A stretch of DNA of 64,000 nt, from positions 98,070 to 162,069 of the forward strand of contig JBDHKN010000005.1 of the NCBI GenBank assembly GCA_039586365.1, read 5' to 3'. Position 1 is the first letter of the stretch. Each line of letters starts with the position of its first letter. Below, piece after piece: positions 15,931 through 36,737 of this stretch. Made by a program: the position numbers and the translations under genes. The notes below the pieces were generated by a model that saw only the letters and a list, made by a program, of their open reading frames with translations, was not told where the DNA came from and ran no database searches. Source of the stretch: Gemmatimonadota bacterium (GTDB taxonomy: Bacteria > Gemmatimonadota > Gemmatimonadetes > Gemmatimonadales > GWC2-71-9).

Positions 15931-16824
15931 ATGACCCAGCTCTCAGCGAGCAAGGCAAGAGCCTTTTTCTACACCGGTTCCTCCACTGCCTTCGATCAGT
16001 ACTTGCAGGACATCCAGAAACTCCCCTTGATCAAGGACCCGCAGGAAGAGCGGCGTCTGGCCCGAAGAGCCAGGAGCGGCGATCAGAGAGCAGCCGAGCA
16101 GCTAGTGACGGCCAACCTGCGGTTTGTGATCTCCTACGTGAAGAAGTATCAGGGACACGGGCTGGATCTGGCCGAGTTGGTTGCAATCGGCAACGAGGGA
16201 CTTCTCAAGGCGGTGAAGAAGTTCGATCCCGATCAGGGCGTGAAGTTCATATCGTACGCGGTATGGTGGGTACGGCAGGCAGTGCTCAAGGCTCTGGCAG
16301 AACAGACTCGTAGCGTCCGCATTCCGCTGAACCAGAATAGCCAACTCATCCGGATGTCTCGCACGGAGACGTTTCTCTCCCAGGAACTGGGGCGTGAGCC
16401 GACCGATAAGGAGATAGCACGAGCACTGGACGAGACAGTGACCAACGTGCGGAACGCGCGACGGATGACAGCAGCAGAGGTCTCGCTCGATGCCCCAATT
16501 GACCGGACCGACAAGGACGCCGCAACACTCGGTGAACGATTTGCTGGCCAGGAAGGCACAGAGATAGAAGATCACACCGATGGGAACCTCATGCGGGAGT
16601 TCATAGATCGAGTCTTCGAGAAGTACCTCACTCCTAGGGAGCGGAAGATCCTGTACTTGTATTACGGTTTGGAGGAAGGATCTGAGGGGATGACGCTCGA
16701 GAAGATCGGAGCTCTCATGGGGGTCACCCGCGAGCGGATCAGACAGATTCGCGAGCGGGCTTTCGAGAAACTTCGGGAAAGCCCGGACGGTGCCGCGCTC
16801 ATGGGATTCTGGAGGGCCGCATAG
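15931..16824 (+). CDS. RNA polymerase sigma factor, RpoD/SigA family, lacking region 1.1
   Basis: DQYLQDI (1.2), ANLRFVISYVKKY, GNEGLLKAVKKFDP, KFISYAVWWVRQA, TLEKIG..GVTRERIRQI; AGGAG RBS before ATG 15931. Confidence 0.93.
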   Translation: MTQLSASKARAFFYTGSSTAFDQYLQDIQKLPLIKDPQEERRLARRARSGDQRAAEQLVTANLRFVISYVKKYQGHGLDLAELVAIGNEGLLKAVKKFDPDQGVKFISYAVWWVRQAVLKALAEQTRSVRIPLNQNSQLIRMSRTETFLSQELGREPTDKEIARALDETVTNVRNARRMTAAEVSLDAPIDRTDKDAATLGERFAGQEGTEIEDHTDGNLMREFIDRVFEKYLTPRERKILYLYYGLEEGSEGMTLEKIGALMGVTRERIRQIRERAFEKLRESPDGAALMGFWRAA

Positions 16825-16858
16825 CGGATCTACCTCATGGCAACGCAGTGACTCCTCC

Positions 16859-16899
16859 GAGGGGACCCTGGCGTTTGCCTGGGTCCCCTCCTTCATTTT
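16859..16899 (+). terminator. intrinsic terminator-like hairpin after the sigma factor gene
   Basis: GAGGGGACCC-T-GGC / GTTT / GCC-T-GGGTCCCCTC followed by CTTCATTTT. Confidence 0.65.
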
Positions 16900-17039
16900 G
16901 CATCTGGACGCCCCCTGAACACCACCACAGCCTTATTATTCGTATGCGTAGTCACCCCCACCGATCGCATTAGCTCCACGGTCACACGTGGCCCCCGAGG
17001 TAGAACCATGGCAATAGGCAACCCTAGCAGCTACACCGT

Positions 17040-18560
17040 GTGGTTGACCCACAGTCTGAGATGACGATTCCTCCGGCCGCAATCGACGCGCTATGCTCCG
17101 TGGTCGGCGACCAGTGGGTTCGCACCAGCGCTGCCGCATTGGAGACCTATGCCAGCGATGGTCTGCCAACGCACCACTCATGTCCTGGGGCTGTAGTGAT
17201 TCCTGAAAATGCAGCCCAAGTCGTGGGGGTGTTACGAGCCCTCGAGCAACACGCGGTGCCGTTCGTGGCGAGAGGAGCGGGCACCGGTCTCTCGGGTGGA
17301 GCGCTCGCTTCAGAAGGTGCTGTCTTAGTGGCTCTAACCCGCCTCACCCACATTTGCGAAATCGATCCCATGAACCGAAGAGCGGTTGTGGAACCTGGGG
17401 TCATCAACGCGCAGCTGTCGGCCGCCACTGAACCGTTCGGGCTACACTACGCTCCAGATCCTTCCAGCCAATCGGTCTGTACGCTTGGCGGGAATGTCGC
17501 TGAGAACGCTGGGGGGCCCCACTGTCTCAAGTACGGTGTGACTGGCAACCACATTCTGGAGCTGGAGGTTGCTCTGCCGAACGGGGAGTTAACCACATTG
17601 GGGTCACCGGGGGGAGAGCCCTGGGGACCGGATCTGGTAGGACTCTTTGTCGGTAGCGAGGGAATGTTCGGGATCGCTACCAGAATCACCGTCAAGCTCA
17701 CTCCCTTGCCTCGAGCGGTGCGCACCCTGCTCGCCGATTTCTCATCACTCCGAACGGCTGGGGAAGCCGTTACCGCGATCATCTCGTCCGGCATAGTGCC
17801 GGCGGCCCTCGAGATGATGGATCAGAAATGCGTGACCGCCGTCGAGGCGTCCATCTACCGAGCAGGCTATCCAACTGATGTCTCTGCTGTCTTGATAGTG
17901 GAAGTGGATGGCACGACCGAAGCGGCGGTTGCGGAAGAGACAGGACAGATAGCCTCGATCTTACAGAGCTCAGGGGCACGGAGTGTCACCACAGCGAGTG
18001 ACCCGAAGCAGCGGGCACGCCTCTGGCAGGGCCGCAAGAAAGCCTTTGGAGCGATGGGCCGAATCGATTCCGACCTATCTGTGCAAGATGCGGTCGTCCC
18101 ACGCACGCTGCTTCCTGACATTCTCGAGCAGATAAGCCGGATCGGAATCGACTACGGCCTCTCAGTCTGCAACGTATTTCATGCCGGTGACGGCAACCTC
18201 CATCCTAACATCGCTTTCAACGGCAAGGATCCGGTCATGCGCAAGCGCGTAGAACGTGCTTCCAACGCCATCATGCACCTGTGCGTTGAGGGGGGAGGGA
18301 CGATAACCGGAGAACACGGAGTCGGATTGGACAAGCGCAACCTCATGCCGCTCATCTTCGATCCGGACACGCTGGGGTTGATGCGCCGCATCCGACGCGC
18401 ATTCGATCCTGATGAACGGGCAAATCCCGGCAAAGTCTTGCCAACCCACAGCTGTAGGAAGCAGCGGATGGGATCACCACAACCCCAGGAGCGATTCGAC
18501 TACGGATCCGGGACGCGACGGACCGCGCAATTGGCACCGCAACCCCCGGCTGAACGATGA
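17040..18560 (+). CDS. glcD: glycolate oxidase FAD-linked subunit
   Basis: RGAGTGLSGGA, PDPSS, GGNVAENAGGPHCLKYG, GSEGMFG, HAGDGNLHP, GEHGVG, NPGK; start may be ATG 17061. Confidence 0.9.
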   Translation: MVDPQSEMTIPPAAIDALCSVVGDQWVRTSAAALETYASDGLPTHHSCPGAVVIPENAAQVVGVLRALEQHAVPFVARGAGTGLSGGALASEGAVLVALTRLTHICEIDPMNRRAVVEPGVINAQLSAATEPFGLHYAPDPSSQSVCTLGGNVAENAGGPHCLKYGVTGNHILELEVALPNGELTTLGSPGGEPWGPDLVGLFVGSEGMFGIATRITVKLTPLPRAVRTLLADFSSLRTAGEAVTAIISSGIVPAALEMMDQKCVTAVEASIYRAGYPTDVSAVLIVEVDGTTEAAVAEETGQIASILQSSGARSVTTASDPKQRARLWQGRKKAFGAMGRIDSDLSVQDAVVPRTLLPDILEQISRIGIDYGLSVCNVFHAGDGNLHPNIAFNGKDPVMRKRVERASNAIMHLCVEGGGTITGEHGVGLDKRNLMPLIFDPDTLGLMRRIRRAFDPDERANPGKVLPTHSCRKQRMGSPQPQERFDYGSGTRRTAQLAPQPPAER

Positions 18561-19771
18561 TCGACAAGCAACTCCGTGTCTTGGTCGGAGAAAGAGGATT
18601 GCTTGGCGCTGACGCCAGCGGCATTCCGAGAGTAGCCCCTCATACAGATGAAGAGTGCGCCCTCGTACTGAGCGCCGCATCCAGCGAAGGCTGGCACGTG
18701 CGGATCGAAGGTTCGGGCACGTGGATCCCGAGTGACGCACCAGCAGACTTCGCTCTGACGACCCGCAATCTGAGGGGAGTGACCGACCTCAATCCCGCAG
18801 ATCTAGTTGCCACTGTGCGGGCAGGGACCGGCTGGGCCAATCTACGCTCGACAGTGCTGGATCAGGGGGCGTGGGTCGTAGCTGACCCTCCAGGAAGTGG
18901 TCGATCCGTCGGATCCATAGTCGCCACCGCCAGCTCAGGTCCACTCAGGACAGGGTTTGGAACACTCCGGGACCAGATGTTGGGACTTACACTGGCCACT
19001 GGCAATGGAGAGATCGTACGAGTGGGCGGCAGAGTTGTTAAGAACGTCGCAGGTTATGACATCACGAAGTTAGCCGTGGGCAGCTTTGGCGCGTTTGGCG
19101 TCATCACTTCCGTGAACCTCCGCCTCCGGGCCGTCCCCCGCGTTGACGCTACCATGCTGGCGTACGGGGAGCGGGATGGGTTACTGAGGGCGGCCAGGAG
19201 TATTCTCGAAGCCGGTACCACACCAGCGGCACTAGAAGTAGTATCACCGCTCGCGACCGGCCAGTCACGGTGGGCCGTGATAATACGACTGTTGGGATCT
19301 GACGCCGCTGTCAACGCGGACCGTTTGACCATTGCTTCCGCCGTCGCTCCCATCGCTCTGAAGGAGCTGGACACGAGCGAAGCCGCCCAGCTATGGCAGA
19401 CTCTGCTGACCAAGGCAACAACGGGGGAGACAACTCTGAGGCTTGGCGCACTCCCGACTGCTCTTGAGACAGCCCTCGACACCCTGGCACACCATGTCGA
19501 CGAAGCGTGCGACGACTGGATTATGGTGAGCGTTCCAGCAGGTGTCGTCCGATGGTCGGGTGCGGCACCCCCCAACCGGCTACGTCTTCTGCGTGGGGTC
19601 TGCGCCCAACACGAGATGCCGATGACAATCGAGCGAGCTCCCTGGCACATACGTTCAACCATCGGTCATTTCGGAGCCTACCGTGAAAGCGTCGGCCGGA
19701 TCATCGCCTCACTGCGTCGATCCTTCGATGGCCGTGGGATTCTAGTGGTCCCCTTGAGTGACGAGTCGTGA
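18557..19771 (+). CDS. glcE: glycolate oxidase FAD-binding subunit
   Basis: GGRVVKNVAGYDITKL.VGSFGAFGVI; lies between glcD and glcF with 4-nt overlaps. Confidence 0.87.
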   Translation: MIDKQLRVLVGERGLLGADASGIPRVAPHTDEECALVLSAASSEGWHVRIEGSGTWIPSDAPADFALTTRNLRGVTDLNPADLVATVRAGTGWANLRSTVLDQGAWVVADPPGSGRSVGSIVATASSGPLRTGFGTLRDQMLGLTLATGNGEIVRVGGRVVKNVAGYDITKLAVGSFGAFGVITSVNLRLRAVPRVDATMLAYGERDGLLRAARSILEAGTTPAALEVVSPLATGQSRWAVIIRLLGSDAAVNADRLTIASAVAPIALKELDTSEAAQLWQTLLTKATTGETTLRLGALPTALETALDTLAHHVDEACDDWIMVSVPAGVVRWSGAAPPNRLRLLRGVCAQHEMPMTIERAPWHIRSTIGHFGAYRESVGRIIASLRRSFDGRGILVVPLSDES

Positions 19772-21045
19772 ACGGATACGGAATTGTGGGTCTCAACCCT
19801 TGCGTCCACTGCGGCTTCTGCCTGCAGAGTTGCCCAACCTATTTGGCGACCGGTGATGAGTCCGACAGTCCGCGGGGTCGGATAGTCCTGATCAAGGCCC
19901 TAGTGGAAGGCCGTCTTCCGCCGACCGAGCAGAGTCTGGCCCACCACATTGATCGATGCCTCGGCTGCCGCGCATGCGAAACCGTCTGCCCATCGGGCGT
20001 TGAGTACGGGCCCGCGTTGGAGCATACCCGGGCAATACTCGCCCATACGCGGCCCATACCGTTGACCGCACGTCTTGTGAACGCGGTCCTTGCCGAGGTT
20101 CGGCTACGCCGACCGCTTCTGGCGCTGGCCCGGACCGCCAGACCCACTGCACGAGCACTCGCTGGTAATTCACGACTTGGATTCGCCTTAGGCATGTTGG
20201 GCGCGACAGCCGCATGGCCCAGCGGTAGGGAAGCCGGTGGACCGGCACTTTCCCGCGGGACGATGAGAGACGATGGACTGGCAACACATAGGTCGCCCGA
20301 CACCAGACCCAGCATCCTGTTCATGGGTTGCATAATGGAGGGCCTGTTCGCACACGTACACAGGGCCACACAGCGAACTCTCACCGCAAATGGATTTGAT
20401 TTTGCGGCCGTACCAAGCCAAGTCTGCTGCGGGGCACTCCACGCGCACACTGGACAGCACGCCAAAGCAATGGAACTGGCGCGGACGAATGTTGCAGCCT
20501 TCGCAGCTCATCCGGACGCGTTCGTCGTGGTCGACAGTGCCGGCTGCGGGGCCATGCTCAAAGAATACGGTCGCCTCCTTGCCGGAGATCCCCTGGAGTC
20601 AGAGGCAGTTGCATTGTCCGGACGGGTGCAGGACGTCTGCGAACTTCTGGCTGAGGCGGGTCCCCGAGAGGGAGCGAAGATACGGCTTCGCGTGGCATAT
20701 GATCCCCCCTGCCATCTCTTGCACGCGCAGGGCATCCAGGAGGCACCTCTGCAGATGCTGAGTTCAGTTCCCGGTTTAGAATGTGTTCAGCCCCGAGCAG
20801 CGGAGCTTTGCTGTGGCAGCGCCGGCAGCTACTCGCTGACCGAAACCGTGCTATCACGCACCGTTCTGAATCAGAAAATCGAGGCCCTCAGAGCAGTCGA
20901 GCCGGATCTGGTTGCGTCCGGGAATCCAGGTTGCATCATGCAGATTGGAGCAGGCCTGGCTGCCAGCGGCTCCGAGGTTCGCGTAGTACATCCCGTGGAA
21001 ATACTCGATTGGTCATACCAGGAGGCCGGGATGTATGACCTCTGA
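19768..21045 (+). CDS. glcF: glycolate oxidase iron-sulfur subunit
   Basis: CVHCGFCLQSCP, SPRGRI, CLGCRACETVCP, two CCG domains, NPGC. Confidence 0.9.
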   Translation: MNGYGIVGLNPCVHCGFCLQSCPTYLATGDESDSPRGRIVLIKALVEGRLPPTEQSLAHHIDRCLGCRACETVCPSGVEYGPALEHTRAILAHTRPIPLTARLVNAVLAEVRLRRPLLALARTARPTARALAGNSRLGFALGMLGATAAWPSGREAGGPALSRGTMRDDGLATHRSPDTRPSILFMGCIMEGLFAHVHRATQRTLTANGFDFAAVPSQVCCGALHAHTGQHAKAMELARTNVAAFAAHPDAFVVVDSAGCGAMLKEYGRLLAGDPLESEAVALSGRVQDVCELLAEAGPREGAKIRLRVAYDPPCHLLHAQGIQEAPLQMLSSVPGLECVQPRAAELCCGSAGSYSLTETVLSRTVLNQKIEALRAVEPDLVASGNPGCIMQIGAGLAASGSEVRVVHPVEILDWSYQEAGMYDL

Positions 21046-25404: not shown

Positions 25405-25852
25405 TTGGTGGCTTTCCCTGGCAGTCGTGATCAGTCAAGTTGTGAAGCCACGCCGCCGGGATACCTGTGGTCTTCGAAACAAGCATCTCCTGGAACGGAA
25501 CTAGCTCCTCGGACGTTGAATCACTAGACTCGGGTGGTGAATCGTTTTTCGGGTACGCAGAACCAAAAGGACGACCTCTGTACCAGACAACCTGCAATCC
25601 ACCATGCCAGTAGTGCGAGCTGCAAGAATGCTCTACGACCTGGAGCGGTTTTGGCGTGTCGAGAGCCGGTTGCTGCGCCCGTCGGAATACCCGATCTGGA
25701 GGCTGCAACGCTTGCAGGGCCCACCAGTGCCTAGGTGGGAAATCTAACTGCCACTCCTCACAACAACTTATATTGCCCAGTTGTCAGCCAGCTGCCCGAA
25801 TTTGGTTGTCATGTGGCTGGGCCGCCGTTCTGGTTGAATCCTGGCCCAGCGT

Positions 25853-25870
25853 CGGGATCGATTCTTGCAA
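25853..25870 (+). promoter_or_regulatory. candidate sigma-54 promoter for the exopolysaccharide operon
   Basis: GG(25855)-ATCGATTCTT-GC(25867): GG-N10-GC with TTGCA, 35 nt before the start codon; the -24 flank is imperfect. Confidence 0.4.
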
Positions 25871-25903
25871 TGTGTTCCCTGGGTCCCTCAGGAGAACCGC
25901 GCC

Positions 25904-27382
25904 ATGAAGCGCATCAATACGGGCATCGGCCCCTTCGACCAGCTAACAGGTGGAATTCGCGCTGGCGGGATTTACGTTGTAGCTGGCGTCCCCGGAAGTG
26001 GAAAGTTCGCGGCTCTGCTCCAGTTCCTGAGTAGCGGCGTTGCAGCCGGCGAATCCGTCGCTCTGCTCACCGGAACTCCGCCGCACCGCGTGTTCGAGCA
26101 AGCGGACCACCTGGGTTTCGGTCTCGAGCGGGCCTGGAAGAGTGGAAAGCTGCGACTGCTGGGTTTCACCGACAATTTTGAACGTTTGCTCCAGAGGGCA
26201 GCCGACCCGGAGGACGTATTCAAGGAACTGAGCGCTTTCATCGGGAATGAGGTGTCACGCCTCGGCATCGATCCGGGGAAGCCGCTGTGGGAAACCAAGG
26301 CTGGTACGGCACTCGGTAATCGTTTTGTACACTGGGCTGAATCTTACGCAGCGACCACCTGGGTGACCCTTGGCAGCGATCTCTCCGAATCCCTCTCCCC
26401 AGCCACCGAATGGGTCCTGCAGACCGCCTCCGGCGTCTTGAAGATCGAGCGACTACCCAATGGAATCAGACAGCTCTGGATACGCCGGCGCAGTCCCGCT
26501 ACTGACTCCCAAGGGCCGATCTCTCTCGAGTTGGTGCCGCGTAAGGGATTGCAGCAACTGTCGGGCCGATTTGACAGACGCCGAACCGATGCTCCATTCG
26601 GCGCCGAGCGGCGCCTCATCCTGCTCAGCCTGGCAGACAAAGTGCCTGCAGAGATCGTCGGCTGGGCTCGGAGCCAGTACGATGTGGTAGAACTCGACCA
26701 ACCTCTTACTCTGGTAGCACGGCTCCAGGATGGCGAAGCCTGTGGGGTGATACTTGCATATGTGGATCGCCGTCGGAGCCGCGACGCGGCAGAAGCCTGT
26801 CGTGCCCTCCGACCCCTGACCGCCGCACCGATAATAGTGGTTGCGGATGATCGACTCAGAGCCTCGGACCGAACCAGTGCGCTCGATGCGGGTGCAAACG
26901 ACTTCTTGAGTGATAATTTCAGCGTCGCTGAGCTCGCGTCCCGCATTGAAAGAGCTGTTCAGTCCACTCGTGGCTTGTCACCGTCCCGCCGGTATCAAGA
27001 CGTTCCTGCTGAATCGCCTCCTGCAGTCACGTTGGAGCAAGCCGAATTCGTGAAGCGAGTCAGGGAACGACTCGCAGCTACCCATGACACGATGTTCACT
27101 CTCGTCACAGTGACAACCGAACATGACCTAGATGACGTGATTGGGGAGGTGCTTGCCCAGCAAATCCGCAGCGACGTCGGTGATTTCGTGGGCCGGACTG
27201 CTGCCGGATATGGGGTCGTTCTCCAGGGAGCCCGGCCGAACCAAGCCGCAGCCTTCCTAGGACGAGTACAGAATGCTCTGGACCAAGCAGGCCTCGGTGA
27301 TCGGAGGCTCGATGTTGCCCTGTACAACAGCGCTAATGAGGCGAGCCGGATTGCCGAGATTCTGGAAGCGGGGTCGGGCTGA
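25904..27382 (+). CDS. KaiC/RAD55-like ATPase + pseudo-receiver + degenerate GGDEF protein (BcsE-like architecture)
   Basis: RINTGIGPFDQLTGG start, Walker A GVPGSGKF, RLGID; REC-like PIIVV..ALDAGANDFL..ELASRI; GGDEF-like QIRSDVGDFVGR..YGVVL..AAAFLGRV. AGGAG RBS before ATG 25904. Confidence 0.75.
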   Translation: MKRINTGIGPFDQLTGGIRAGGIYVVAGVPGSGKFAALLQFLSSGVAAGESVALLTGTPPHRVFEQADHLGFGLERAWKSGKLRLLGFTDNFERLLQRAADPEDVFKELSAFIGNEVSRLGIDPGKPLWETKAGTALGNRFVHWAESYAATTWVTLGSDLSESLSPATEWVLQTASGVLKIERLPNGIRQLWIRRRSPATDSQGPISLELVPRKGLQQLSGRFDRRRTDAPFGAERRLILLSLADKVPAEIVGWARSQYDVVELDQPLTLVARLQDGEACGVILAYVDRRRSRDAAEACRALRPLTAAPIIVVADDRLRASDRTSALDAGANDFLSDNFSVAELASRIERAVQSTRGLSPSRRYQDVPAESPPAVTLEQAEFVKRVRERLAATHDTMFTLVTVTTEHDLDDVIGEVLAQQIRSDVGDFVGRTAAGYGVVLQGARPNQAAAFLGRVQNALDQAGLGDRRLDVALYNSANEASRIAEILEAGSG

Positions 27383-27431
27383 ACCGTGATGGAATTCCAT
27401 CAACGGTAGCTCGTTGTAGGCCTATCTCGCC

Positions 27432-29630
27432 ATGCTAGCCCTGCCGCGTCGGCAAACAACTCGCACTCCCTACTGGCTGAGGTTCTCGCTCATTCTGGCC
27501 ACTTTGGGAGCGACTACTTCGGCATTCGTACTGATTGTGCTGCCGCGGCGGTTCGTGTTGAATGCGAATCTCATCGAGTCAGGCATTACGTTTCCGACCG
27601 GGACAATACCGTTCTGGCATCTAGGGCTGCGACACGTGATTCCGCCGACCCCGATCATCATACCCGAGCCGATCCTCCCAGGGCCCGCTGAAGTCTTCTG
27701 GAGTGAGGTTGTGCCGCTGCTCGACGCGGAGGCGTTCGAGCGTGCGCAACCAGTGTTCGAGCAGTACCTGGCGGAACATCCCGACGACATCGACGCTTGG
27801 CGGGATTACGCCGTGACACTACAGCGCCTCGGCCATTACGAAGCGGCGGAACAGATCTATCTGAGGCTGGTTGATACTTTCGGAGAGCCAACTGACAAGC
27901 TCGACTTGGCCAGACTGCTCCGTGATCAGGGCAGATTCGAGTCGTCGCTCACACTGTACCGCGAACTGGTGGCAGCGGATCCCTCGGATGTTGAGCTCCA
28001 CCATGAACTGACACAGACTCTCGTCTGGGCCGGGAATTACCGCGAAGCGACCTACGCATATCGGACCCTCATGACGGAGTCACCCGACGAGCAGCAATAC
28101 AGGTTGGAACTAGCTCAGGTGCTGTGGTGGGATGGTTACCCGGTGAACGCCCTCAAGCTTCTCCGGGCCTTTCCGAGTGACGCCCCGCAGGCTTCTGAAG
28201 CTGAGGTGTTGCGAGCGTACCTCGATTCGCTCCTGACTGCCGCACTGCCTCCCGGCGAGACACTGATTGAGCAGGCGCGGAGGGCCTTAGAGGTCCAGCA
28301 CTTCGAACAGGCCACCGCGCTGTATCGAAGAGCGATATTCCGCGATCCCGCTGATCCCGGCCTCTGGCTCGAATGGGCCGACTTCCAACAGCTTCACCTG
28401 CAGGATCTCGCCGCAGCGAGGGATGCACTCATCCACGTAGGAACACTGCGCAACCTGACGTCGACGGAGCGTTTTCGTCTGGCTCAGCTCTATTCGTGGA
28501 CTGGACAGGAAGAGGCTGCTGAGAGTGTGGTGCTCGCCCTATTGGAGGACGATCCGAACTACACAGAGGCTTGGGTGTTGCTGGGGGATCTATACTCGTG
28601 GCAAGGCCACCGAATCCAGGCGGCAAGAGCTTACCGCCAGGCCCTGGCAAGGGCTCCCACCAACGAGACAGCCCGGCTCGGGCTGGCCAGTGTCCGACAA
28701 CAGACTGCCGACGCTATTGTTGAGAGTGAGAGACCTCGGGCCGGGCCACAGGTTCTGCTGTTCCAGGACTCCGACGATTTCTTGCGCCTGGATGTCATGG
28801 CGACGGCTAGCCATGTGTGGTCCAACGCGAGCGCATTGGTGCGCAGCGGCTACCGTCGGATCGAGGGTGCGGCTCTTGACGGAACTCCAGCAACAGAGCA
28901 AGGGCCATTCTTGGAAGTGGAAATCGCACGCTGGTGGCGTTTGGGTACCGTTCGAACATCCTTGGCAACGGGATTGGAGAACTTCAATGATTCTGGCACT
29001 GAGCCCACCCTCGAAGTGGGGCTGGAAATGCCCGACATACACGGCACCTCTCTCACCGCCATCTACCGCCACGGAAGAGCCTTCCCTCAGGCAGTGACGC
29101 TTGAGAGCGTGTTAGGTGGCCTCTTAACCGAACAACTGGAAGCGTCCTTCTTCCGCCGATTGGACACCTCTTGGGATCTCAGTGGAGCCGCGTCCGTAGC
29201 AGCCTTACACGGTACCGATGAGAGCAACACACGCCTTCAACTGGCATTCACCACGCGGCGAGCGCTGACGCAGCATTTTAGTGCAGCCATAACGTCACAA
29301 GTCCTGACGTTCGGCGAGGCTGCCCCTGTTATTCAAGGCAGAAGGCTCTATTGGGATCCTGCGGTATTCTGGTCCAACGGGTTGCAGCTCGCGGTCAGCA
29401 GCCCAACCGACAACCCTCTACAGCTCAACGTCCGGATCACGCCAGGAATGGCACTGACGAAAGAACGGGCCGGCGGGTCTTTGGATTTGGTACCACAGCT
29501 CGGAACAGAGGCAGGCTTCGGGTACGAGACCGATCACATCGAGTTCCGCACCAACGTTATGTATTGGCAGGGCAGGGAAGGCGATTACAGCTCCTTTGGT
29601 GCGAACATAGCGTTCGCGATAAAGTACTAG
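27432..29630 (+). CDS. TPR-repeat protein with C-terminal putative beta-barrel (PgaA/BcsC-like export porin)
   Basis: N-terminal hydrophobic segment, many TPR-like helices, then alternating beta-strand pattern ending ANIAFAIKY (terminal aromatic). Confidence 0.72.
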   Translation: MLALPRRQTTRTPYWLRFSLILATLGATTSAFVLIVLPRRFVLNANLIESGITFPTGTIPFWHLGLRHVIPPTPIIIPEPILPGPAEVFWSEVVPLLDAEAFERAQPVFEQYLAEHPDDIDAWRDYAVTLQRLGHYEAAEQIYLRLVDTFGEPTDKLDLARLLRDQGRFESSLTLYRELVAADPSDVELHHELTQTLVWAGNYREATYAYRTLMTESPDEQQYRLELAQVLWWDGYPVNALKLLRAFPSDAPQASEAEVLRAYLDSLLTAALPPGETLIEQARRALEVQHFEQATALYRRAIFRDPADPGLWLEWADFQQLHLQDLAAARDALIHVGTLRNLTSTERFRLAQLYSWTGQEEAAESVVLALLEDDPNYTEAWVLLGDLYSWQGHRIQAARAYRQALARAPTNETARLGLASVRQQTADAIVESERPRAGPQVLLFQDSDDFLRLDVMATASHVWSNASALVRSGYRRIEGAALDGTPATEQGPFLEVEIARWWRLGTVRTSLATGLENFNDSGTEPTLEVGLEMPDIHGTSLTAIYRHGRAFPQAVTLESVLGGLLTEQLEASFFRRLDTSWDLSGAASVAALHGTDESNTRLQLAFTTRRALTQHFSAAITSQVLTFGEAAPVIQGRRLYWDPAVFWSNGLQLAVSSPTDNPLQLNVRITPGMALTKERAGGSLDLVPQLGTEAGFGYETDHIEFRTNVMYWQGREGDYSSFGANIAFAIKY

Positions 29631-29632
29631 CA

Positions 29633-30973
29633 ATGGCAGGAAAGATTCGTCCCATCGTCTCCATCCTGAGCACCACCACAGTAGTGTTAGCCACCGTGCT
29701 GTTCGTTTACTGGGCAATCCACTCGCCACTCCAGGTGCAGCGCTTCCTTGTGCGTCTAGTGCTGATCAGCCTGATCATCTTCCTGGCAATATTGTTCGCG
29801 CGGTATTTCGCACTCCTGTGGTTCAGCTATCTCCAGCATGCCGAGAAAGCGGCGAGGGGACGTGTTGAGAGTCATGATCTCCCACCAGTCTCGGTGGTCG
29901 TGCCGGCGTACAATGAAGCCAAGGTGCTTGATCACGCAATGGAAGCGTTGCTGAGACTCGATTATCCCACCTATGAGGTGATCATCGTCGATGATGGATC
30001 GATAGACGAAACCGTTGAGGTGGCACGGCAATGGGAAGGCCAGCATGGCGACGTCGCGGTCCGGGTGTTCACGAAGGCGAACGGAGGTAAGGCAACCGCA
30101 CTCAACGCCGGGATTGCACAGGCCCAGTACTCGTTTATCCTTTGCATGGATGCCGACTCTTGGATCGAGCCGCAGACCCTACACGTCGTAATGCCGCACT
30201 TCGAGGATCCATCTGTTGGCGCAGTGGCAGGCAACGTCAAGATCTTCAACCGGGACAACTTGCTGACTCGCCTGCAGGCTCTGGAGTACATTGAAGGTCT
30301 CAACATGCCGCGTCGTGCCCAGGGATTCCTGGGTGCCGTGAACGTAGTCCCGGGCCCAGTTGGCGTGTTCCGCCTGGAGGCTCTCCAAGAGGTTGGCGGA
30401 TATGATGCTGACACGTTTGCCGAGGATGCGGACCTGACGTTACAGCTCATCACCGCCGGATGGCGGATCATCTATGAGGACAGCGCAATAACTTGGACGC
30501 AAGGTCCGACCAACCTCATCGACCTCATACAGCAGCGCTATCGCTGGACTCGAGGAATCTTGCAGGCGGTGCGCAAACAGAAGTGGATTCTCCTTCAGCC
30601 ATTCCCGGACTTTCCGCTATGGGTCTCGGCGGTGGAGATGGCATTCGAGGGCGTTGTCTGGCCGGTCCTAAACGTCTATGCTCACCTGTTCTTCGCTATT
30701 GTCGCCCTTCTGTTCGGGATGGGGGAGCTGTTGTTGTATTGGTGGATTCTGCTGACACTGCTCGATCTGGTAGTGGCTCTGATCACGGTTTCGATGGAGG
30801 AGGAGTCCCTTTCCCTCGTACCGTTAGCTGTGGTGTACAGGTTCTTTTTCATACTGTTCCTGGACGTAACGAAAACCTTCGCTGCTGTGGAAGAAGCGCT
30901 GAACCTTGGGATGGATTGGGGGAAGTTGCGCCGAATCGAGCTGAGTCAGAGCACCCGTGCAGGGCAGCGCTGA
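29633..30973 (+). CDS. processive GT2 glycosyltransferase (PgaC/IcaA-like synthase)
   Basis: VPAYNE, DDGS, NGGKATALN, DAD, LQALEY, AEDAD, QRYRW; two N-terminal and several C-terminal TM helices; 446 aa, no PilZ extension. Confidence 0.88.
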   Translation: MAGKIRPIVSILSTTTVVLATVLFVYWAIHSPLQVQRFLVRLVLISLIIFLAILFARYFALLWFSYLQHAEKAARGRVESHDLPPVSVVVPAYNEAKVLDHAMEALLRLDYPTYEVIIVDDGSIDETVEVARQWEGQHGDVAVRVFTKANGGKATALNAGIAQAQYSFILCMDADSWIEPQTLHVVMPHFEDPSVGAVAGNVKIFNRDNLLTRLQALEYIEGLNMPRRAQGFLGAVNVVPGPVGVFRLEALQEVGGYDADTFAEDADLTLQLITAGWRIIYEDSAITWTQGPTNLIDLIQQRYRWTRGILQAVRKQKWILLQPFPDFPLWVSAVEMAFEGVVWPVLNVYAHLFFAIVALLFGMGELLLYWWILLTLLDLVVALITVSMEEESLSLVPLAVVYRFFFILFLDVTKTFAAVEEALNLGMDWGKLRRIELSQSTRAGQR

Positions 30974-31021
30974 CGAGCCGCTGCCCAACGTGACCACCAC
31001 ACCCAACGGACTGGTAGCCCA

Positions 31022-31237
31022 ATGTCTGTAATCGATCTCCTGATCACGATTATCGTCGTCACCATACTAGTAACAATCGCGTTGGGAGTGATGTCGTACC
31101 TCGCCTACAAACTGCGCCTGGCACGCCGTCCGAGCCAGCCGGAGGACGACATGGCTGAGAGCCGATACTTCGTGATCCATGAACCGCCGCTGGAGTCTGC
31201 GCCTGAAACCGAGGACACTAGTGTCGCCGAAACGTGA
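31022..31237 (+). CDS. small single-pass membrane protein (possible PgaD/IcaD analogue)
   Basis: 71 aa, strong TM helix followed by YKLRLARR and an acidic tail; directly after the GT2 and overlapping the next gene. Confidence 0.65.
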   Translation: MSVIDLLITIIVVTILVTIALGVMSYLAYKLRLARRPSQPEDDMAESRYFVIHEPPLESAPETEDTSVAET

Positions 31238-33107
31238 TCCCGTTCCCCGGGCACGCTCGCCCCTCCAGTGGTTGGGGGGAATTCTCATGCTCGGTGTGCT
31301 CGCGGCCGGAGTAGTCGCTGCAGGTGTGCGCCTTTGGCAGGACATCGATATTCAGAGACTCACGAGTAGCGCAGCCTTGGCGGAACCGCACACAGTGCCA
31401 GCCGCCCTCTTAACCAACGCACCAGCTGTAGCCCAACAGGATTACGAGGCGGCGTTGTTCCACTCTCATTCTAGCCGGGGGTTCTTTCCTGATTCACAGT
31501 ATTACCTAGACCAGCTTGACCAATGGGAACGACTCATTGCGGAGACTGGCGGGCGTGTAATTCGGGTATCTTCAGCCGCGGAAATCGAGGCGCTGTCGGG
31601 TGATGAGTTATTGGTCGCTACTTCCGCAGTGTGCCTGCACCGCAACGAAGTGAGGGCCCTTCGCAACCATGCCGAGCGGGGGGGCGGCTTGCTCGTGACC
31701 TGGGCGGCGGGCGCCCGTGACTCGAATTGCGAGTGGCTGGGGTGGGGCGCGCTCAGAACACTCACAGGAGCCACACAGATCCGTGAACTGCAGCAGCGAG
31801 AAGCTCTCTATTTCACGGTTCCCGCCGGCACACCTTTATCCCTCGGATTCGATCCCGGCACTCGAGTTGAGTTACGGTACGAAGCCCAACTCGCCGCCGC
31901 GACTAGCGGCCCCAGAGTATATTGGTCGGATTGGGCATTGAACGCAGCACCGGCGGATGCCAGCGAAGAGGTCCATGCGGCTGCCACCACCGGCTGGACC
32001 GAGAGGGGAGGGCGCATCGTCTGGTTCGGGTTCAGGCTGGGACATGGCGCTCGTTCAGAGGACGAAGAGCGAATGTCACTGCTGTTCTCAAACGGTCTGC
32101 GCTGGGCTGCCCAAATCCCCATGGCAGGGATCACTGCCTGGCCTGGTGGTTCCCGCTCCGCACTGATGATCTCCCAGGATGTCGAGTCCCAGTTCGGCAA
32201 TGCCGTAGCCCTGGCTGACCTGGCTAGGCGCAAGAGCGCCCCAGTCAGCTTCTTCGTCGTCTCGCAGATGGCACTGGACTTTCCGGAAGTTGCGGATTCT
32301 TTGAAACTGGCAGGCGAGATCGGCAGCCAGACCTCTGATCACACAATCTTGGCGGGCCTTGCCTACAACGATCTGCGTCCCCGTCTCAGCCGGAGCTGGG
32401 CAGAGATCCGTGGTTGGACCGGAGACTCGACATACGGATTGCATCCTCCAGAAGAGCGATTTGACGAGAACACGCTGAGAGCGTGGCGCGAAGTCGGCGG
32501 TACCTACGTGCTCGCCGTGAACGAGTCCCGAACTGCGAGCCCTGAGGTATTCGCCACACCAGCGGGTGAGATAGTGTTGCTGCCCAGGATACTAAAGGAC
32601 GACTACAACGTCTTCGTACAGGAAGGTGCACTCCGGTCTATGCGCCTGACCGAAGCATACCTCGAGGGTATGGCGAAAGCCAGAGCTTTGGGCGGTCTCG
32701 CCGTGATATCGACTCGAAGTCAGGTCGGCGGAGAACCCAGCAGAGTACGGGTGGTCGGCGAGGTGATCGACAGTGCTCAAGCGACAGGTGAATGGTGGAT
32801 AGCATCTGGAAGAGAGATAAGTGATTGGTGGCTCGCGCGCCGGGAGAGTGGCGTGCAGGTGCGTCGCACAGTGGGCGGCGGTGTGGAAATCACAGTCACC
32901 GCACCCATGAGAAACGCACTTGCTGGCGCGTGGCTCGAGATAATCCCCCCGGGATTCCCGGAGAATTGGCTGCCAACTACGAACGGCCAGCCTATCCAAT
33001 ACTTCGAGAGTGAGTGGGGAATCCGTATCCCCATCGAACAGTTGCTGGCTGGCGAGCAGGTTGTTTTTGTCGTGCGTCAGCAGGGTCCACAGACTCCAGG
33101 TGGCTGA
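31221..33107 (+). CDS. polysaccharide deacetylase (CE4/NodB-like) with extra N-terminal domain
   Basis: WPGGSRSALMISQDVE, PVSFFVV, EIGSQTSDH, GLHPP, WIAS..EISDWW; N-terminal TM anchor; GAGGA RBS before GTG 31221. Confidence 0.75.
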   Translation: MSPKRDPVPRARSPLQWLGGILMLGVLAAGVVAAGVRLWQDIDIQRLTSSAALAEPHTVPAALLTNAPAVAQQDYEAALFHSHSSRGFFPDSQYYLDQLDQWERLIAETGGRVIRVSSAAEIEALSGDELLVATSAVCLHRNEVRALRNHAERGGGLLVTWAAGARDSNCEWLGWGALRTLTGATQIRELQQREALYFTVPAGTPLSLGFDPGTRVELRYEAQLAAATSGPRVYWSDWALNAAPADASEEVHAAATTGWTERGGRIVWFGFRLGHGARSEDEERMSLLFSNGLRWAAQIPMAGITAWPGGSRSALMISQDVESQFGNAVALADLARRKSAPVSFFVVSQMALDFPEVADSLKLAGEIGSQTSDHTILAGLAYNDLRPRLSRSWAEIRGWTGDSTYGLHPPEERFDENTLRAWREVGGTYVLAVNESRTASPEVFATPAGEIVLLPRILKDDYNVFVQEGALRSMRLTEAYLEGMAKARALGGLAVISTRSQVGGEPSRVRVVGEVIDSAQATGEWWIASGREISDWWLARRESGVQVRRTVGGGVEITVTAPMRNALAGAWLEIIPPGFPENWLPTTNGQPIQYFESEWGIRIPIEQLLAGEQVVFVVRQQGPQTPGG

Positions 33108-34316: not shown

Positions 34317-34415
34317 AGGCCAACTCCGAAGAAGCCAACTGGCATGTGAGGTGTAGATTACACGGTCCAACCGGAGGTGATCCAATGCAAGCGACCAACT
34401 CACGTCCCAACTACG

Positions 34416-36737
34416 ATGACGGACCGTAGATCGTTCATATCCATCCTCTCCGCTCTGGGAGGTTGGTTCGCTGCACCGGCATGGAGCAGAATAGGTAGCC
34501 CATATTTGAGCGTCGAAGCGTCCGCATCAATCTTCTACGCTCACCCTGATGGCCAACAATGTCTCGTGCGGTTCATAGCCGCGGGGATTGCCGCACAGGC
34601 TGGCCGACTACGTGTCTACGACGGAGCGCGTCGCCTCCTGGGAACAGCGGGGGTCCTGCGCCGAGACGACGGTCTATACGGAGAACTATGGTTACCCCTC
34701 TCTCAACCGACCATGATCGTGTCGGAACTCGAAGCTCCCGGCTTGCGTGGTCCAGTCAGGACAACTCACAGAATAGCACCTCCAAGGAGATGGACAGTGC
34801 ATCTCCTTACCCTCGTGGATCCCAATGTGCTCATGGACGAACTGCTGAGCCTGCGACCAATCTCGCGCGTAATGCAAGCCGCTGTGTACAGGAACTATGG
34901 TCTGCGAGCTAATGCACTACCAATATCGTTCGATATGGGCGGCTGGGACCATCTTTCGCTTATCAGTTCCATAGGTCCTCGTGTCAAGGAACTGAGTCGG
35001 CTCGGCATTACAACTGGACCTGCGGTGCTGGTGGAGGATCCGGGAGTACTGTCGAACACTGTGTCGCTACTGCTCGCCGGATCGGGCGTTCAACTTGTAA
35101 TCGTGCCCAACAGGAAGGATGCTTTCCGTTGGCTCGAAAGTCCGGATGGGACACAAATCCTCACTGTAGCGATACCTCCGGGTGGTACTCCGCAGGAACT
35201 TGGCTTCACGCAAACTCGCGGAGAGATGACCGCCCGGATCGAAGGATGGCTCACTACTTCTCCGCACTTTCTGCATTCAGCCTATGAACAGAGTGTGGCT
35301 CTAGTTCTCAACTCTATCGCCGGAGATGAACTGTCTGCAATCCATGCAGCCGTGTCCGACTGGAATACGCGCTTCGCCTATCCGAGCTTCAGAGTGGACG
35401 ATGTGGACGGCATTCTGGGCTCACTTCAGTTGGCGCGTGGAGCCGCTGTCCCTGTCACTAAACCGGAGCCGACACGACGCTCGAGCATCCCATCCTCTCT
35501 ACAGCTGCGGGACTGGAACCGCCAAAGATCGACCGCGGATGCGGCTCGAACTGACCACATGCTCGGTATCTTCGCAGGGCTAATGCAGCCGGGAGCGGCT
35601 GATTTGACCTCGATCACATCCCAAATCTCCGCCATCGTCCCGGGCACGGTTGTGTTCAACCCGTCACCGTTCTACCGCTCGGGTTTCGTGCGCCTCTTCG
35701 ACGGTAACGAACGGGTCGTCACCAACATCCCGGGGCTGGGGTACGCATACTTCCCCGACGACTCGAAGGCAGAAACCGGGAAATGGACAGCAACGGGGCA
35801 ACTTGATGAGGTACAAGGTCAGCGGATGCGTGTGAGACTGGATACAGTCTCGGGGGCGATTCGGTCTCTCACAGACCGATCAGACGGGCGCGAATTGGTC
35901 CGCGATGATTCGGCAGGACTGAATGCGGTGGATGCAGCTCGGCTCGATGGAATCGCCAGTTGGCGGCTGCCCAACATAGCCACCCGTCTCGAAGCGCAGC
36001 GGTGGTCGCCGGGTCGAGGTCCTTGGAAGACCACCGTGACCGCCTACGACCGGCTCCCGTGGATTGACATCGAGAACGATGCGGCGTCTAACGGTGACCA
36101 AAGTCTCACGTATCGGTTCGGGTTTGCCGTACCCGATCCACTTGTATCGTGGGAAGTGCCTTTGGGCCAGGAACAGTCCGGCACCCCGGTGGTTGGCTTG
36201 GAGCACCTGCGTTGGGTGCGTCTCGCTGGTGACTGGAACGCGATTCTCTTCAGGGGGTTCGACGCACCGCTCGCCTCGGTCGACGCAGCCGGGACTGTAA
36301 CTAGTCATGCACCCGCCGGGCTGGCCCGATACCGGCTAGGCCTGCAATCCCACGACGATAGCCCCGACCTCCCTTGGCAATTCGGATGGGCCACGATCCC
36401 CTTCGAGACCGCCAGGCTAGAGCCTGGCAATGGGGGTCCTCTGCCCACCTTTGGAGCGTTCCTGGAGATCGACCGAGTCGGAGTGGCCGTGCTGGGCTTG
36501 GTACCGACATTCGAGGAAGGCGCACTCATTCTCTACCTGCAGGAACTTCTGGGTGTCCCCCGAGACGTGTCCGTAAGCTGGGGCCTAATCCGCTTCGGGG
36601 TAGCCCAGCTTGTCGATTTCTTGGAACGGCCTAGCGGGGAACCCCTGCGACCCCGAAATGGTACTGTCACCGTACCTATTGCCGCCCGTGGCGTGACGGC
36701 TGTCCGGTTGGCCGCCCTGGAACCGAACCTCGACTGA
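34416..36737 (+). CDS. Tat-exported protein, distant GH38 alpha-mannosidase-like
   Basis: MTDRRSFISIL twin-arginine motif; RRWTVHLL, VVFNPSPFYRSG, IPGLGYAY, GAIRSLTDR..GRELV, LYLQELLG resemble GH38 scaffold segments. Confidence 0.55.
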   Translation: MTDRRSFISILSALGGWFAAPAWSRIGSPYLSVEASASIFYAHPDGQQCLVRFIAAGIAAQAGRLRVYDGARRLLGTAGVLRRDDGLYGELWLPLSQPTMIVSELEAPGLRGPVRTTHRIAPPRRWTVHLLTLVDPNVLMDELLSLRPISRVMQAAVYRNYGLRANALPISFDMGGWDHLSLISSIGPRVKELSRLGITTGPAVLVEDPGVLSNTVSLLLAGSGVQLVIVPNRKDAFRWLESPDGTQILTVAIPPGGTPQELGFTQTRGEMTARIEGWLTTSPHFLHSAYEQSVALVLNSIAGDELSAIHAAVSDWNTRFAYPSFRVDDVDGILGSLQLARGAAVPVTKPEPTRRSSIPSSLQLRDWNRQRSTADAARTDHMLGIFAGLMQPGAADLTSITSQISAIVPGTVVFNPSPFYRSGFVRLFDGNERVVTNIPGLGYAYFPDDSKAETGKWTATGQLDEVQGQRMRVRLDTVSGAIRSLTDRSDGRELVRDDSAGLNAVDAARLDGIASWRLPNIATRLEAQRWSPGRGPWKTTVTAYDRLPWIDIENDAASNGDQSLTYRFGFAVPDPLVSWEVPLGQEQSGTPVVGLEHLRWVRLAGDWNAILFRGFDAPLASVDAAGTVTSHAPAGLARYRLGLQSHDDSPDLPWQFGWATIPFETARLEPGNGGPLPTFGAFLEIDRVGVAVLGLVPTFEEGALILYLQELLGVPRDVSVSWGLIRFGVAQLVDFLERPSGEPLRPRNGTVTVPIAARGVTAVRLAALEPNLD

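Follow-up and report, generated by a model that had tools for sequence, protein, structure and literature searches.

Which polymer system is encoded where a BcsE-like protein stands at the head of a polysaccharide synthase and exporter, and is that system controlled by cyclic di-GMP (c-di-GMP)? The question is raised by five genes in a 64,000-nucleotide stretch of a Gemmatimonadota bacterium (assembly GCA_039586365.1, contig JBDHKN010000005.1, positions 98,070 to 162,069), here called the window. An initial annotation had proposed a hybrid exopolysaccharide system, in which five closely spaced, co-directional genes after a spacer of about 500 nucleotides (nt) encode a Pga-like secretion core and a BcsE-like sensor. 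All five open reading frames are present on the + strand (25904-27382, 27432-29630, 29633-30973, 31022-31237 and a fifth ending at 33107), with gaps of 49, 2 and 48 nt between genes 1 to 4 and a spacer of 499 nt upstream. Based on our analysis, they probably form a conserved operon for synthase-dependent secretion of an N-acetylglucosamine (GlcNAc) polymer, switched by c-di-GMP via a BcsE/BcsF-type module.

The same five genes recur together in other genomes. In a scan of species-representative genomes, where locus counts refer to the best 80 of 102 confirmed stretches, the complete ordered operon was found in 53 of the 80 loci, and in 25 more a contig end clips the operon with its order kept; the two exceptions are L093, with genes 3-5 beside a run of N, and L101, with half of gene 5. 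Eight fetched stretches gave a similar picture: seven carry the five genes in order, the contig of the eighth begins inside gene 2, and the flanking genes vary. One copy of gene 1 is frameshifted and one of gene 5 truncated among these eight. Retention of gene order in 53 of 80 loci despite changing flanks is far beyond chance, with the proviso that related genomes are not independent cases. Matches to gene 1 over nearly its full length are found in 19 of 401 genomes of the phylum, therefore the system is patchy; a tally of 346/401 was discarded as a count, consisting mostly of single-domain ATPase or receiver matches. Among 60 relatives, gene 5 has a strong match in all seven genomes of the same genus plus one other, and only a weak match to its carbohydrate esterase (CE4) domain in two more.

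The named homologues belong to Gemmatimonadota, and one distant gene 1 cluster includes a member named Nitrospiraceae. A search with a divergent gene 5 retrieved 534 relatives. A metagenome scan of 80 loci returned two full-length matches (L148 and L149), two more clipped by contig ends and otherwise weak partial matches; in contig L149 a distant gene 1 is followed by genes 2, 3, 4 and 5, a GH18 gene and, on the opposite strand, another gene 5 homologue, and its glycosyltransferase (GT2) is 46% identical to gene 3. Sixteen stretches around distant gene 1 matches hold the full operon order in five cases. In three others (L132, L133 and L141) gene 4 comes immediately after gene 1 and no synthase is nearby, L134 and L138 are without gene 5, L139 has an N-terminal-only gene 1 and an extra gene before genes 2-5, L140 has gene 1 without any partner match, and three reach the contig end within gene 2. 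The last, L145, was set aside as a true double-domain KaiC. The proposed hybrid is thus a conserved synthase-dependent secretion operon of a widespread type, not a one-off combination.

Gene 1 (25904-27382, +) encodes a 492-residue protein that had been read as a BcsE-type ATPase-receiver-GGDEF protein, and the reading holds up. A KaiC-like ATPase domain (residues 1-220; Pfam E 1.5e-12) is followed by a degenerate receiver (235-357; weak Pfam match) and a degenerate GGDEF domain (about 375-490), and the family profile matches the receiver-GGDEF portion of PleD across positions 230-468 (E 3e-25). The four top Foldseek matches of the predicted model (predicted local distance difference test score, pLDDT, 89.6) are chains of Escherichia coli Bcs complexes, aligned over 514-541 columns at E 1e-16 to 2e-15 with 12-14% identity; given their length and entries, these chains are full-length BcsE. 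The two c-di-GMP sites of BcsE are R306ATD and R415TGD in the accessible part of PMC7840130. The former aligns with R319ASD in the receiver (I-site II) and the latter with R422SDVGD in the GGDEF domain (I-site I). In a family of 105 members with a mean column identity of 31%, R319 is kept in 103, D322 in 92, R422 in 104 and D427 in 105, so that the Arg/Asp residues matching the two BcsE sites are the most conserved of the whole family. Structure prediction and alignment therefore support gene 1 as a structural homologue of BcsE with both Arg/Asp pairs conserved.

Gene 1 does not reach the BcsE cut-off (TIGR03369, 18.1 vs 244.65 bits), and a PF10995 match appeared in only 1 of 50 scanned distant relatives (22.9 vs 25 bits). 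Four residues separate the Arg and Asp of the GGDEF domain, vs RxxD, and two in the most distant members. An active cyclase was rejected, there being no GG(D/E)EF motif; ten GGDEF domains occur in this genome, seven of which keep GG(D/E)EF. A phospho-receiver was rejected as well, since the acceptor Asp of a distant member corresponds to Tyr and the conserved Lys to Asp, as was a true KaiC clock protein, given the single ATPase domain and the lack of Ser/Thr next to the Walker A lysine. The family ranges from intact to decayed ATPase and receiver motifs, a range that bears on the origin of BcsE. Separately, a DRRRTD linker (residues 224-229, window 26575-26592) joins ATPase and receiver. It is conserved among close-clade proteins (64/105 for R225 and for R226, 60/105 for D229) and makes a third site of RxxD type, in a loop modelled with low confidence.

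A putative partner of gene 1 lies three genes downstream. Gene 4 (31022-31237, +) encodes 71 residues with one hydrophobic segment (residues 6-24), the small membrane protein originally described. Members of its family (75 sequences recovered, 66 aligned) consist of one membrane helix, then a basic stretch with proline at its end, a linker that varies and an aromatic motif that is conserved; in this copy the basic stretch reads YKLRxxRRP and the tail motif RYFV. The elements follow one another in the same way in E. coli BcsF, where PRYVKP comes behind the basic stretch. As described in the accessible parts of the BcsE-BcsF literature, BcsF recruits BcsE (PMC7439463, 10.1101/2024.06.05.597511), and a beta-sheet of the BcsE N-terminal domain is completed by the part of BcsF that follows P43 (10.1101/2024.06.05.597511). 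The best support for a BcsF-like gene 4 is the isolated, adjacent pair of genes 1 and 4 in L132, L133 and L141. In layout and gene partnership gene 4 thus resembles BcsF, and not PgaD. Weighing against a BcsE/BcsF-type module is the match of gene 4 to the BcsF family PF11120, which at 13 bits (cut-off 23; E 0.007 across 21 columns) is not significant as sequence evidence alone; a profile search of the PDB returned generic membrane helices, BcsF not among them.

Gene 3 (29633-30973, +) starts with ATG and encodes a membrane GT2 synthase of 446 residues. It carries DDGS120, DADS173, EDAD264 and QRYRW301, the complete processive motifs, invariant across 21 aligned members. As annotated at the outset, the synthase is without PilZ: the Pfam scan found no PilZ match in gene 3, and only about 35 residues beyond the last of five hydrophobic segments leave no room for such a domain. 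In a tree of 21 sequences (ten gene 3 proteins and a small set of 11 references), the gene 3 proteins form their own clade (96/98), apart from PgaC/IcaA (100/100) and BcsA. They do not group with the non-processive reference, the only one of its kind and poorly placed with 25% of columns filled; a non-processive GT2 was rejected on QxxRW and the membrane segments. By BLAST ranking the references nearest to gene 3 are large fusion synthases, matched over about 400 residues at E 3e-66 to 7e-60, and PgaC follows (1e-46 and 4e-42), while the tree leaves the deeper branching order unsettled. Two fusion synthases were scanned with Pfam (L233 and L234), one having GH18, CE4 and GT2 and the other CE4 and GT2, as GH18 passed the threshold in L234 only. 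Loci of the present operon with a GH18 gene hold the same enzyme trio; unlike in the fusions, the enzymes are separate genes and come with an outer-membrane exporter and a regulator.

The exporter would be the product of gene 2 (27432-29630, +; 732 residues), for which tetratricopeptide repeats (TPR) and a barrel had been proposed. The predicted model (pLDDT 88.8) has a helix at residues 14-44, a low-confidence Pro-rich linker, TPR repeats at 85-433 and 16 strands at 436-731, bearing out both parts. Its top structure match is BcsC (E 5e-14), with PelBC ranking lower, and its Atlas look-alikes are BcsC, PgaA and PelB barrels. At the sequence level the barrel region matches no Pfam family at E 1e-6, and the profile matches E. 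coli PgaA in 73 TPR columns only (E 0.008). Gene 2 is thus predicted to encode a TPR scaffold and a 16-strand outer-membrane barrel closest to BcsC. The hydrophobic N-terminal helix has conserved residues and therefore may be an uncleaved inner-membrane anchor.

Gene 5 (31221-33107, +; 628 residues) encodes an N-terminally anchored protein, predicted to be periplasmic, with amidotransferase-like, CE4 and C-terminal domains. Since its homologues begin M-x-P-x-R-D-P-V-P-R, the GTG at 31221, which gives a 17-nt overlap with gene 4, is more likely the start than the ATG at 31179. The CE4 assignment stands: Pfam places the domain (E 2e-8) after a class-I-amidotransferase-like region (with weak ThuA, DUF4350 and GH42M matches), and the structures matched by the profile are CE4 enzymes, with PDB 3rxz ranking first (E 6e-21). 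Its active site is another matter, as three of seven positions deviate. At positions that we take from alignment to 3rxz and from CE4 motifs, the copy here has D,E,Q,H,H,D,R vs D,E,H,H,R,D,H for a complete site, the differing residues being Q370, H408 and R499. The complete site is kept in 16 of 52 aligned members and in 19 of 74 loci. The copy in this genome is likely an inactive or non-canonical deacetylase, and its retention despite a degenerate site suggests a binding or scaffold role. In L149 the GH18 gene lies between two gene 5 homologues that point towards each other (16098-17978, +, and 19074-20930, -); the second keeps a His pair in the metal motif and the first did not match the pattern. 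The Atlas look-alikes of gene 5 come most often from clusters of Pseudomonadota, Ignavibacteriota and Myxococcota, which is a lead only.

From these features we infer that c-di-GMP switches the synthase on by way of gene 1. The gene 4 protein would sit in the inner membrane and tether the gene 1 protein by its cytosolic tail, adding a beta-strand to the KaiC-like domain as BcsF does for BcsE. The gene 1 protein would clamp a c-di-GMP dimer between R319xxD322 and R422xxxxD427 and, so loaded, activate the PilZ-less GT2 either directly or via gene 4, with no BcsQ or BcsR in the operon. The GT2 would polymerise UDP-GlcNAc and thread the chain across the inner membrane. In the periplasm the gene 5 protein would bind the chain and deacetylate it in lineages with a complete CE4 site, probably not here; the gene 2 protein would guide and export it, and the optional GH18 enzyme would trim it.

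The proposed module resembles BcsE-BcsF, the type II cellulose regulators of E. coli, in its three-domain degenerate ATPase-receiver-GGDEF protein, whose c-di-GMP sites both align, and in a small single-pass partner with a basic stretch, a proline and an aromatic tail, encoded adjacently or in the same operon. It differs in its 12-14% identity and phylum, in the four-residue I-site spacing and in an ATPase domain still clearly KaiC-like. Unlike the E. coli cellulose system, the operon is without BcsA, BcsB, BcsG, BcsQ, BcsR and BcsZ; no cellulose synthase, BcsG or BcsRQ was found among the five genes in Pfam and NCBIfam scans, and the sole BcsQ-family match of the genome lies on another contig, the same family having matched 14 of 14 control genomes. 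BcsE and BcsF are treated as E. coli-type cellulose features, with BcsE secondary to the PilZ domain of the synthase, in the accessible parts of PMC7439463, PMC7840130 and 10.1101/2024.06.05.597511. As the synthase here is without PilZ, gene 1 would be the only sensor and not a secondary one. If gene 1 is the switch, c-di-GMP control of polysaccharide synthases would have one more mode, and a minimal five-gene system with a PilZ-less synthase and no BcsRQ would provide a small setting in which to test BcsE alone.

What the polymer is depends in part on the optional hydrolase. Downstream of gene 5, 24 of the 80 loci carry a GH18-like gene; of these genes, 6/6 that were run against Pfam were confirmed as GH18, as were those in L139 and L149, and one inspected protein has a lipoprotein-like start with DxE kept. 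GH18 was not found in this genome, whose 86% completeness bounds all genome-wide negatives. GH18 enzymes characteristically cleave beta-1,4 GlcNAc bonds. Their presence after gene 5 therefore points to a GlcNAc polymer and raises the chances of a beta-1,4 linkage, and the product may be beta-1,4-linked rather than poly-N-acetylglucosamine (PNAG). The picture is complicated by the CE4 site, which is incomplete in all 14 of the loci initially selected for carrying GH18. The fusion-type relatives of the GT2 are compatible with beta-1,6, since Streptomyces MatB, a CE4-GT2 fusion likened to them by description only, makes a PNAG-like product according to the accessible part of PMC5972031. On balance a beta-1,6 linkage is tentatively the foremost candidate, beta-1,4 comes next as a possible alternative, and any other linkage is doubtful. 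A bolder reading would make this an undescribed, multi-phylum chitin-like (beta-1,4-GlcNAc) system with BcsE/BcsF as its sole direct c-di-GMP switch, the ancestral setting from which enterobacterial cellulose systems borrowed them. It would include the distant members with intact Walker A and canonical I-site, and a polymer charge tuned from lineage to lineage by keeping or disabling the deacetylase. We regard this reading as unlikely. An amino-sugar product with beta-1,4 linkage would count as a new type of matrix polymer in bacteria.

Much less likely than the favoured model is a rearranged pga (PNAG) system, in which gene 4 is the PgaD equivalent that co-senses c-di-GMP with the GT2 and gene 1 is only an accessory. 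PgaC is without PilZ and c-di-GMP is sensed at the PgaC-PgaD interface, as the accessible part of PMC8892547 describes, and the operon shares with PgaABCD/IcaADBC a PilZ-less GT2 of similar size and motifs, a TPR-barrel exporter (PgaA barrels being among the look-alikes of gene 2), a small membrane protein and a CE4-domain protein. PgaC_IcaA is also the best named NCBIfam family for gene 3, which is 32% identical to E. coli PgaC across 271 columns. However, gene 3 scores 223 bits against a family cut-off of 422 and does not fall in the PgaC/IcaA clade. Gene 4 aligns with PgaD at E 0.084 across 14 columns, poorer than with BcsF, no PgaD family match was found in the 86% complete genome, and in three stretches gene 4 accompanies gene 1 and not the GT2. 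Gene 5 does not match PgaB (hhalign E 0.25), and belongs to another CE4 subfamily with another domain layout; in the system GH18 takes the place of the PgaB hydrolase domain, and the BcsE-like protein is extra. The initial mapping of the genes onto PgaABCD is therefore not retained.

Alternatively, gene 1 might be a BcsE-like assembly scaffold, or a sensor of ATP or another nucleotide, and the synthase might not be gated by c-di-GMP. The GxxGxGK of Walker A is largely kept, with K34 present in 94 of 105 family members and the next Ser/Thr in 42; the I-site spacing is non-canonical; and in L149 a putative cyclase-like gene, so called for its motif and without a Pfam match, lies upstream of gene 1. 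However, the close clade has Phe/Leu after the Walker A lysine (Phe in the protein here), and the most conserved residues of the family are those that match the two c-di-GMP sites of BcsE, which makes this alternative improbable, more so than a rearranged pga system. A cell-attached or short product (a surface glycan or oligosaccharide signal) in place of a secreted matrix polymer is highly improbable: NodC, included in the GT2 tree, has the same motifs and makes short oligomers, and the deacetylase site is decayed here, but a TPR scaffold and 16-strand barrel like BcsC/PelB are kept and the five genes include neither a ligase nor a flippase nor an ABC exporter.

The favoured c-di-GMP-switched GlcNAc operon can also be set beside other known systems. 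Like Pel, with PelB and PelD, it has a TPR-barrel (the PelBC match) and a separate degenerate-GGDEF c-di-GMP receptor that would act on the synthase. The Pel synthase is a soluble GT4. Pel further has a separate transporter, as given in the accessible part of PMC8892547, unlike the single membrane GT2 here. The bacterial chitin synthases described in the accessible part of PMC5122149 sit in operons with epimerase and DUF1800/DUF1501 genes, a content different from that of this five-gene operon. That the combination had not been recognised as a described operon type agrees with our literature search, which found no description of it and no study of Gemmatimonadota matrix polymers, subscription journals lying outside its coverage. 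As far as their accessible parts go, a review describes hybrids within cellulose systems only (PMC8892547), and an operon survey left bcsE out of its query and does not mention Gemmatimonadota in its main text, although its supplements could list such loci (PMC7112194). Overall, the operon varies on a type of secretion system already known, by its unexpected regulator and by a GT2 that defines a clade of its own.

Around the operon, the spacer between an fdhD-like gene and gene 1 (25405-25903) is presumed to be the promoter region; it gave 0 Rfam matches up to E 1 and therefore holds no known c-di-GMP riboswitch. The cluster has the same GC content as the window. Downstream, a gene at 34377-36737 (+) encodes a 786-residue protein with a twin-arginine-like N-terminus and no match in Pfam or NCBIfam, which also lies near the operon in the relatives L013 and L016.

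Several distant relatives have neighbours of their own. In L139 (5556-6817) and L144 (5840-7812), the gene 1 match is limited to the ATPase part and a small membrane/TPR gene precedes gene 2; no receiver-GGDEF part turned up in the stretch for this clade. In L149 (8922-9983, +) and L148 (2861-4021, +), a membrane protein gene lies immediately upstream of the distant gene 1. The C-terminal region of the L149 protein resembles a class III nucleotide cyclase in its motif, with no Pfam match at E 0.01, and an extra signal input is possible. Archaeal-looking contigs (L153, 6471-11866, also L152 and L156) carry PelF-like (DUF3492 and GT1) and PelG-like genes that diverge from a group of KaiC-like genes, among them one fused to a small GTPase domain. 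Finally, distant gene 1 homologues adjoin a sulfotransferase gene in L141 (2753-5568), which has gene 1 and gene 4, and in L142 (1514-5017; sulfotransferase confirmed by Pfam), which has gene 1 and a TPR gene, possibly a variant that makes a sulfated polymer.

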